Under the pieces are notes generated by a model, which was not told the origin of the DNA, made no database searches, and saw only the letters and a list, made by a program, of their open reading frames with translations. From an uncultured Eubacterium sp. (GTDB lineage: Bacteria > Bacillota > Clostridia > Lachnospirales > Lachnospiraceae), in NCBI GenBank assembly GCA_964436595.1, contig CAYTDI010000006.1:16474-80473 (forward strand): DNA of 64,000 nt. The letters run 5' to 3'. Of this stretch, positions 5,508 through 5,744 are shown one piece after another. Position numbers and translations under genes: made by a program. Each line of letters begins with the position of its first letter. Positions within the stretch are counted from its first letter, which is position 1.

Positions 5508-5744
5508 ATGAGTGATTTAGCTGCAACAAACTGTGGATGCGGATGCGACAACAATAACAACGGAGGCTGCCTTAACAACAGTTGTATTTGGATTATCTTA
5601 TTACTTTTCTGCTGTGGTGGATGTGGTAACAACAACGGCTGTGGAGATAACTGCTTTGGCAATAATAGCTGTATTTGGATTATCTTATTGCTTTTCTTCT
5701 GCGGCGGATGTGGCAACAACAACAACGGATGCGGCTGCTTCTAG
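5508..5744 (+). CDS. Cys/Gly/Asn-rich small protein with an internal duplication (two NNSCIWIILLLF hydrophobic cores)
   Basis: 78 aa counted from the ATG at 5508, which has GGAGGA at 5495-5500. The ORF track starts 5 codons earlier. Composition is 15 Cys, 15 Gly and 17 Asn. The internal repeat has a 29-residue (87-nt) period. A strong terminator follows. Confidence 0.6.
   Translation: MSDLAATNCGCGCDNNNNGGCLNNSCIWIILLLFCCGGCGNNNGCGDNCFGNNSCIWIILLLFFCGGCGNNNNGCGCF

Follow-up and report, generated by a model that had tools for sequence, protein, structure and literature searches.

A cysteine-rich, two-core micro-protein linked to sporulation in Lachnospiraceae: most likely a small component of the spore outer layers

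The gene described here is positioned at 5508–5744 on the forward strand of a 64,000-nucleotide stretch of contig CAYTDI010000006.1, which belongs to an uncultured Eubacterium sp. of the family Lachnospiraceae. The whole of this stretch is referred to as the window. The translation and alignments define a coding sequence for a micro-protein of 78 residues, identical to the peptide quoted in the original prediction, which had been made from the nucleotide sequence alone. The peptide contains 17 asparagines, 15 cysteines, and 15 glycines, which together form 60.3% of its residues, and the hydrophobic core CIWIILLLF occurs twice, at residues 26 and 55. A ribosome-binding site, GGAGG, is located at 5495–5499 (+), eight nucleotides ahead of the ATG. 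The intrinsic terminator at 5758–5786 (+) is composed of a 13-base-pair stem, a three-nucleotide loop, and a T-run, and its hairpin is located 14 nucleotides past the stop codon. A second in-frame ATG, at 5493, overlaps the ribosome-binding site. However, the homologues begin with the residues MSDL, and therefore the start codon is that at 5508. All 92 orthologous loci have an open sense frame with GGAG or GAGG ahead of the start, whereas the antisense frame with common wobble positions is open in just 79 of them. The open reading frame is a real gene, as originally proposed, and the strong ribosome-binding site, the perfect terminator, the 60% content of cysteine, glycine, and asparagine, and the duplicated core of that proposal are all borne out.

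The micro-protein belongs to a large family. A word-indexed search of 5.8 billion proteins returned 495 relatives at E ≤ 1. When 1.84 billion representatives of 50% identity clusters were searched exhaustively with a profile, 427 clusters reached E ≤ 1e-3, and 130 of these reached E ≤ 1e-10. All of the relatives found are bacterial. The top matches have E-values from 3e-21 to 1e-9 and identities of 55–75%, and the window peptide is similar over its full length to the two-core family members from Lachnospiraceae. The gene was found in 129 of 201 sampled Lachnospiraceae genera, nearly always as a single copy. Among the records with a homologue are some titled Faecalicatena contorta, [Ruminococcus] torques, Claveliimonas monacensis, and Sporofaciens. 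The original prediction had proposed to look for peptides resembling CxWIILLLFCCGGCG and for their neighbours, and to ask whether the homologues are conserved and their frames intact; the 427 clusters, the 495 relatives, the 92 intact frames, and the three conserved neighbouring genes described below answer these points in favour of the gene. A record titled 'Thermoguttaceae bacterium LCP21S3_D1' also holds a homologue with 60% identity to the window protein, and this assembly is probably mislabelled or contaminated.

Many members of the family have been named "chorion class high-cysteine HCB protein 13" by NCBI. However, the Pfam and NCBIfam models, including the Pfam chorion domain, gave zero matches to the peptide even at E ≤ 10, and the literature retrieved with the name deals with Bombyx only. 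Therefore, the label seems to be an artefact of the amino acid composition, and the family is, in effect, one that has yet to be characterised. A database query with one of the homologues gave back its own family alone, and a PDB sequence search with the peptide profile found nothing below an E-value of 0.3. The family is thus already present in public databases, under a wrong name and without function or literature.

The family members share a strict organisation. The near-invariant N-terminus reads MSDL(S/A/T)ATNCGCGC, with the consensus MSDLxATNCGCGC, and is followed by two SC[LI]WIILLLxxCGG units; the window peptide has both the N-terminus and the two cores. Among the 92 loci, the cores are spaced 23 to 38 residues apart, most often 29. 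In 155 of 184 cores, the length of the hydrophobic run is exactly 11 residues, which agrees with the earlier remark that the cores are too short for classical transmembrane helices. The cysteines that bracket each core are near-invariant, whereas the cysteine positions in the arms differ between species. The arms between the conserved elements are variable and rich in glycine, asparagine, and cysteine. The pooled family composition is 24% glycine, 19% cysteine, 12% asparagine, 11% leucine, and 7% isoleucine, with lysine and glutamine at 0.0%, valine and proline at 0.1%, and a very low content of arginine. The number of cysteines per family member has a median of 15 and a range of 9–21.

The two cores of the window gene are encoded by a direct repeat of 63 nucleotides. 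The reference copy (NNSCIWIILLLFCCGGCGNNN) is positioned at 5574–5636 (+), and the second copy (NNSCIWIILLLFFCGGCGNNN), which is 87% identical to it, at 5661–5723 (+), 87 nucleotides away. The repeat was found by a direct-repeat search; Tandem Repeats Finder did not report the 87-nucleotide duplication. The duplication at the DNA level that had been described before therefore stands for these 63 nucleotides, and the wider intervals given for it include more diverged flanks. A recent tandem event, in contrast, does not agree with the alignments: both cores are present in 91 of 92 homologues, and therefore the duplication is family-wide and older than the radiation of the family. The units within one protein nevertheless resemble each other more than they resemble the units of different proteins. 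The three residues that follow LLL are the same in both units of 33 of 82 proteins, compared to 12.9 expected, and the third-codon-position identity between units is 0.66 within a gene and 0.52 between genes. This similarity could stem from gene conversion, from a codon bias common to both units, or from structural constraints that require equivalent positions to match.

Other Clostridia encode peptides of 33–46 residues with one core, in place of the two cores of the Lachnospiraceae protein (hits P0276 and P0281 are typical). These single-core peptides are homologous to the two-core family, with an hhalign probability of 97% for an alignment that runs across the GNDSC[LI]WII junction. They share the arms rich in glycine, cysteine, and asparagine and the WIILLL-type core followed by CC. 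Their genes are preceded by CATAnnnTA boxes of the AC...CATATTATA type, similar to the promoters of the two-core family, and one of the relatives (locus L023) begins with MSEISTNNCGCG, a start of the MSxxSxNNCGCG type that is also found in the two-core proteins. To judge from these alignments, the two-core protein seems to have arisen when such a single-core unit was duplicated internally. The single-core genes often occur as adjacent pairs (loci L022, L026, and L027), in which a CATAnnnTA box precedes the first gene and the distance to the second is no more than about 50 nucleotides.

The promoter region of the gene has features of sporulation promoters. A putative sigma-K-type promoter was read at 5449–5476 (+), where AC (5449–5450) is followed by a spacer of 17 nucleotides and the −10 element CATATGATA (5468–5476). 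The motif CATAnnnT[AG] is present 35–50 nucleotides ahead of the ATG in 90 of the 92 orthologous loci, and 87 unique promoters aligned on this box have the consensus (a/c)AC(a)-N16-CATAt(t/g)AT(g/a). The sigma-K promoters of C. difficile have AC at −35 and CATATAAT at −10, and sigma-E promoters differ in having ATA at −35 (Saujet et al., PMC3789822). The promoters of the window and of the family, with AC at −35, CATA---TA at −10, and a spacer of about 16–17 nucleotides, fit the sigma-K pattern, and by this motif the promoter of the peptide gene matches the sigma-K type, unlike the sigma-E type with its −35 ATA. The window genome encodes sigK, spoIIID, and spoIVA.

Just past the −10 box, at 5480–5485 (+), is a conserved TGTAA(T/A) element, which spans positions +12 to +17, counted from the C in CATA, and is 66–97% conserved. 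The TGTAA(A) element is conserved across genera, at the equivalent place in loci L002–L107. An extended form of the motif occurs a single time in the 2.7-Mb genome, at the peptide gene. The element is a partial match to the SpoIIID box, for which the consensus is KRTAACARK (PMC5025042); the C of AACA is mostly replaced by A. A similar sequence, CATAnnnTAnnAnTGTAAAC, is found upstream of one yjcZ paralogue from Bacillales (locus L113).

The presence of the gene follows that of the sporulation protein SpoIVA. The peptide and SpoIVA (PF09547) were searched for in the same set of 201 genomes, one per Lachnospiraceae genus. Both were found in 124 genomes and neither in 60; the peptide without SpoIVA was found in five genomes and SpoIVA without the peptide in 12. 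The peptide is thus present in 124 of the 136 SpoIVA-positive genomes and in five of the 65 SpoIVA-negative ones. Related genomes are not independent, and therefore phylogenetic contrasts were determined on a tree of leucyl-tRNA synthetase (LeuRS), which covers 149 of the 201 genomes and excludes G062 and the 51 genomes with no listed or usable LeuRS. The minimum number of changes of state on this tree is 25 for SpoIVA and 27 for the peptide. Of 19 phylogenetically independent contrasts in SpoIVA, about 14 have a difference in the peptide in the same direction, none in the opposite direction, and about five have no difference in the peptide, with a median sign-test p of 1.2e-4. The peptide gene has been gained and lost together with SpoIVA.

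The comparator in this analysis was the gene of a Cu/Zn superoxide dismutase, SodC (PF00080), positioned at 9328–9849 (+), 3.6 kb downstream of the peptide gene. SodC tracks SpoIVA in about five of the 19 contrasts, although it is itself confined to SpoIVA-positive genomes (47 of the 201 genomes, that is, 47 of 136 SpoIVA-positive and 0 of 65 SpoIVA-negative) and serves as a comparator, not as a clean negative control. SodC may be a spore-associated enzyme. Together with the sigma-K-type promoter in 90 of 92 loci, the co-loss with SpoIVA makes the link of the peptide gene to sporulation, which the original prediction had suggested, well supported by computational evidence.

Three small genes downstream of the peptide gene, all of them within the window, are conserved in order and encode proteins of 47, 105, and 93 residues. 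Their occurrence was counted in 72 named loci from Faecalimonas, Faecalicatena, Dorea, Mediterraneibacter, Agathobacter, Roseburia, Sporofaciens, and other genera. The gene of the 47-residue protein, at 5803–5946 (−), is convergent with the peptide gene, and a homologue is found at this place in 46 of the 72 loci. The protein has the N-terminus xGKLIIDGNSVYE(I/V)DEEC, followed by a tail rich in lysine, arginine, and glutamate. The gene is preceded by a promoter-like box of AAC-N16 and then CATATATTA (5966–5974, −), a motif that is present in 29 of the 46 loci. The genes of the 105-residue and 93-residue proteins, orf105 (6045–6362, +) and orf93 (6381–6662, +), form an operon and are found at their positions in 59 and 58 of the 72 loci, respectively. 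Any neighbour other than the three partner genes is common to at most nine of the loci.

The orf105–orf93 operon is preceded by a sigma-E-like promoter motif at 5994–6021 (+), which consists of ATA (5994–5996), 16 nucleotides, and CATAAATTA (6013–6021). In several genera, the same place ahead of orf105 was judged by eye to contain GTCATAT, about 16 nucleotides, and CATAGATTA. The box has the form ATA-N16-CATA(A/G)ATTA, and a regular expression for it counted just 25 of 60 loci, since the assignments of the start codons vary. The partner genes carry sigma-E/K-like boxes, and therefore the whole four-gene module looks, from these motifs, to be expressed in the mother cell. The three partner proteins have no match in Pfam or NCBIfam, and a PDB sequence search with the 105-residue and 93-residue proteins found nothing below an E-value of 0.3. 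AlphaFold2 predicts the 93-residue protein to be small and all-helical, with five helices and a predicted local distance difference test (pLDDT) score of 73, and the model has no fold match in the PDB. That orf105 and orf93 are paralogues was ruled out, since they have no similarity to each other. In the loci of single-core genes that were examined, the three partner genes do not adjoin the peptide genes.

Contigs from RNA libraries cover part of the module. In one gut metatranscriptome run, a contig of 226 nucleotides is identical to positions 5510–5735 of the window. The same search also returned contigs on orf105 and orf93, and contigs from the homologues of other species share the conserved 5′ end of the peptide gene. 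There were no contigs on the neighbouring response-regulator gene or on most of the LeuRS gene, and this difference was not used as evidence.

The closest known proteins in layout are the YjcZ peptides of Bacillales (NCBIfam TIGR01732, 'tiny_TM_bacill'). Both YjcZ and the Lachnospiraceae peptide are tiny, lack a signal peptide, and are encoded by genes with CATA-type −10 promoters; B. subtilis yjcZ belongs to the sigma-K regulon (PMC517825). YjcZ has arms rich in glycine and cysteine, and in some cases tyrosine, one hydrophobic core of leucine and isoleucine, and a short cysteine tail. However, its single core is about 16 residues long, compared to the two 11-residue cores of the Lachnospiraceae protein, which differs from YjcZ also in its invariant MSDLxATNCGCGC N-terminus and asparagine-rich arms. 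The Lachnospiraceae gene occurs as a single copy, in contrast to yjcZ, of which one genome can contain as many as 12 paralogues. Neither TIGR01732 nor PF09680 matches the peptide or its single-core relatives at E ≤ 10, TIGR01732 has no match in the window genome, and hhalign to YjcZ gave probabilities of 1.7% for the two-core alignment and 14% for the single-core alignment. The likeness to YjcZ noticed in the original prediction is therefore valid as an analogy in layout and in the type of promoter, and membership in the YjcZ family is ruled out by the profile non-matches and the hhalign values.

The position of orf93 invites a second comparison with Bacillales. The gene encodes a small, predicted helical protein downstream of the peptide gene, and orf93 resembles SpoVIF by eye. 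In two of four Bacillales genomes examined, a yjcZ paralogue is positioned directly upstream of spoVIF on the same strand (loci L280, G809:C1, ~1147248–1147700, and L281/L120, G863:C12, ~5025–5433). Homology of orf93 to SpoVIF is not supported: PF14069 does not match, hhalign gave 2%, and there is no PDB fold match.

Cysteine-rich proteins form protective shells in other organisms. Silk-moth Hc-B chorion proteins have cysteine- and glycine-rich arms on either side of a hydrophobic segment and build a hard, protective shell by self-assembly and disulfides. Chorion amyloid has been described (PMC5618227). The peptide is bacterial and does not contain the chorion Pfam domain, in which it differs from the insect proteins, and the likeness may be a case of convergent design. 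CdeC and CdeM, both rich in cysteine, build the exosporium of C. difficile (PMC6101409), and cysteine-rich coat and exosporium proteins are made in the mother cell, self-assemble, and become disulfide-cross-linked components of shells (PMC6101409, PMC7677010). A shared cysteine-linking chemistry is proposed here for the peptide, for CdeC and CdeM, and for CotY, CotZ, and ExsY of Bacillus. However, these five proteins are unrelated to the peptide in sequence, several-fold larger, and lack short hydrophobic cores.

The peptide can be described as a tiny sporulation peptide with hydrophobic cores and a sigma-K-type promoter, which most likely serves as a small component of the outer layers of the spore. 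In particular, a cysteine-cross-linked structural micro-protein of the spore coat or outer membrane, made in the mother cell, is the explanation favoured here, with somewhat better than even confidence. The gene would be transcribed late, in the mother cell, and the peptide, which has no signal peptide, would be synthesised in the mother-cell cytoplasm. It would then be deposited on the developing spore, at the outer forespore membrane or in coat or exosporium-like layers, where the two short hydrophobic cores may mediate membrane association or self-assembly. Upon lysis of the mother cell and exposure of the spore to oxidising conditions, the approximately 15 cysteines could form intermolecular disulfides and the layer would harden. 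The peptide would thus resemble YjcZ of Bacillus in its design and timing, and the cysteine-rich coat and exosporium proteins in its chemistry. The proteins of 47, 105, and 93 residues, the genes of which have sigma-E/K-like promoters, are the probable assembly partners or chaperones. The peptide has no visible lipoprotein-type signal, because its N-terminus lacks a basic region and the family is essentially without lysine.

Several observations weigh against a cross-linked structural component of the spore. The peptide and SpoIVA are discordant in 17 of the 201 genomes. One of the five peptide-only matches is a weak 30-residue fragment (G030) and two of the five genomes are less than 90% complete, but two complete genomes (G105 and G176) have the peptide and no SpoIVA match. 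The tree is a single-gene FastTree from which 51 genomes are absent, and the co-loss with SpoIVA could result partly from the genome reduction that accompanies the loss of sporulation. The sigma-K assignment is a motif match, and the −10 boxes of sigma-K and sigma-E are nearly identical. The RNA contigs come from a single study, are silent on strand, timing, and level, and could reflect DNA carry-over. The partner genes have no recognisable function. The AlphaFold2 model of the peptide, with two short helices at residues 25–37 and 53–66 and a pLDDT of 52, is poor, and the location, topology, and disulfide cross-linking of the protein have been inferred.

Among the alternatives, the highest-rated is a small membrane protein of the sporulation stage with a regulatory or accessory role, which might, for example, modulate a membrane complex, the engulfment step, signalling in cortex or coat, or the lysis of the mother cell. 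The peptide would then not be bulk structure; its cores would be anchors and its cysteine- and glycine-rich arms interaction surfaces. The strong hydrophobicity of the cores, with a Kyte-Doolittle mean of 3.1 over 11 residues and 1.8 for the best 19-residue window, is compatible with such a role, as is the AlphaFold2 prediction that both segments are helices. The presence of a single copy with a strongly conserved N-terminus and core length would be expected for interaction with a specific partner, and small conserved partner genes are available. However, the cores of 11 residues in 155 of 184 cases are too short to span a bilayer, hardly any charged residues are present that could orient the protein in a membrane, and a cysteine content of 19%, typical of the proteins of cross-linked shells, is not usual in regulatory membrane micro-proteins. 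This explanation is considered unlikely.

The low confidence of the AlphaFold2 helices leaves room for both helical and cross-beta modes of assembly. In the cross-beta case, the peptide would be a bacterial 'chorion': a solenoid-like functional amyloid in which the two repeat units of each molecule form two stacked layers with ladders of asparagine and cysteine, locked by disulfides into a spore shell. Such an organisation would be a convergent counterpart of the eggshell proteins of silk moths and of amyloids with two repeats, such as HET-s, and the pairs of single-core genes might build the same stack from two chains. The amyloid arrangement, including these two corollaries, is rated as slightly less probable than a regulatory membrane protein.

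It is improbable that the peptide serves the spore as a metallothionein-like buffer of metals or redox state, in which CxC, CC, and CGGC motifs bind zinc, copper, or iron or scavenge oxidants, and the cores act as tethers. The 15 cysteines among 78 residues are arranged as CGCGC, CCGGCG, and GCGC, as a metal-binding protein might have them, and the sodC gene 3.6 kb downstream is, among the sampled Lachnospiraceae, restricted to SpoIVA-positive genomes. However, there is no match to a metallothionein or another metal-binding family, the cysteine positions in the arms differ between species and are near-invariant only around the cores, and the neighbourhood of sodC is not conserved, like all neighbours beyond the partner genes.

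Still less probable is an accessory gene with no tie to sporulation, lost during genome reduction and provided with a fortuitous CATA box or another promoter. The patchy SodC is likewise confined to SpoIVA-positive genomes, and the 17 discordant genomes also agree with this explanation. However, the peptide is found in nearly all SpoIVA-positive genomes and in just five SpoIVA-negative ones, and it tracks SpoIVA in about 14 of the 19 contrasts, compared to about five for SodC. Furthermore, the −35 AC and −10 CATA elements are kept in 90 of 92 loci across genera and recur in the distant single-core relatives.

A bacteriocin or the precursor of a ribosomally synthesised and post-translationally modified peptide (of the thiazole/oxazole, sactipeptide, or ranthipeptide type) is very improbable, since the small size, the richness in cysteine and glycine, and a conserved N-terminal 13-mer that might serve as a recognition sequence are outweighed by hydrophobic cores that are the most conserved part of a single-copy gene, the opposite of the usual pattern, by the absence of matches to the SCIFF and heterocycloanthracin precursor models, and by the absence of radical S-adenosylmethionine, YcaO, or Lan-type enzymes, proteases, and transporters from the window flanks and from the conserved neighbours in the 72 loci, where the lack of a maturation enzyme noticed before is confirmed.

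Of the gut commensals that form spores, Lachnospiraceae belong to the most abundant, and most of the coat proteins known from Bacillus and C. difficile are not conserved in this family. Together, the peptide and its three partners make up a compact module without annotation, which follows sporulation capacity through many independent losses. The module is a candidate structural component of the spore surface and a candidate marker by which spore formers could be recognised among metagenome-assembled genomes. The peptides contain essentially no lysine and very little arginine, and therefore trypsin-based spore proteomics is expected to miss them; this blind spot may explain why the family has gone unnoticed. 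The name taken from insect eggshells is misleading, and its replacement is warranted.

The wider surroundings of the module in the window consist of a divergent gene of an orphan response regulator and a V-type ATPase operon on one side, and the genes of LeuRS, SodC, and an elongation factor G-like protein on the other. The response regulator (4310–5329, −) has a receiver domain at residues 4–111, and its approximately 220 C-terminal residues have no family match; the gene is conserved beside the peptide gene in eight of the 72 loci. The LeuRS gene (6750–9158, −) is found within a few kilobases of the peptide gene in many genomes. The identities to the window LeuRS across genomes G001–G200 are bimodal, with 68–87% in about 40 genomes and 54–59% in the rest.

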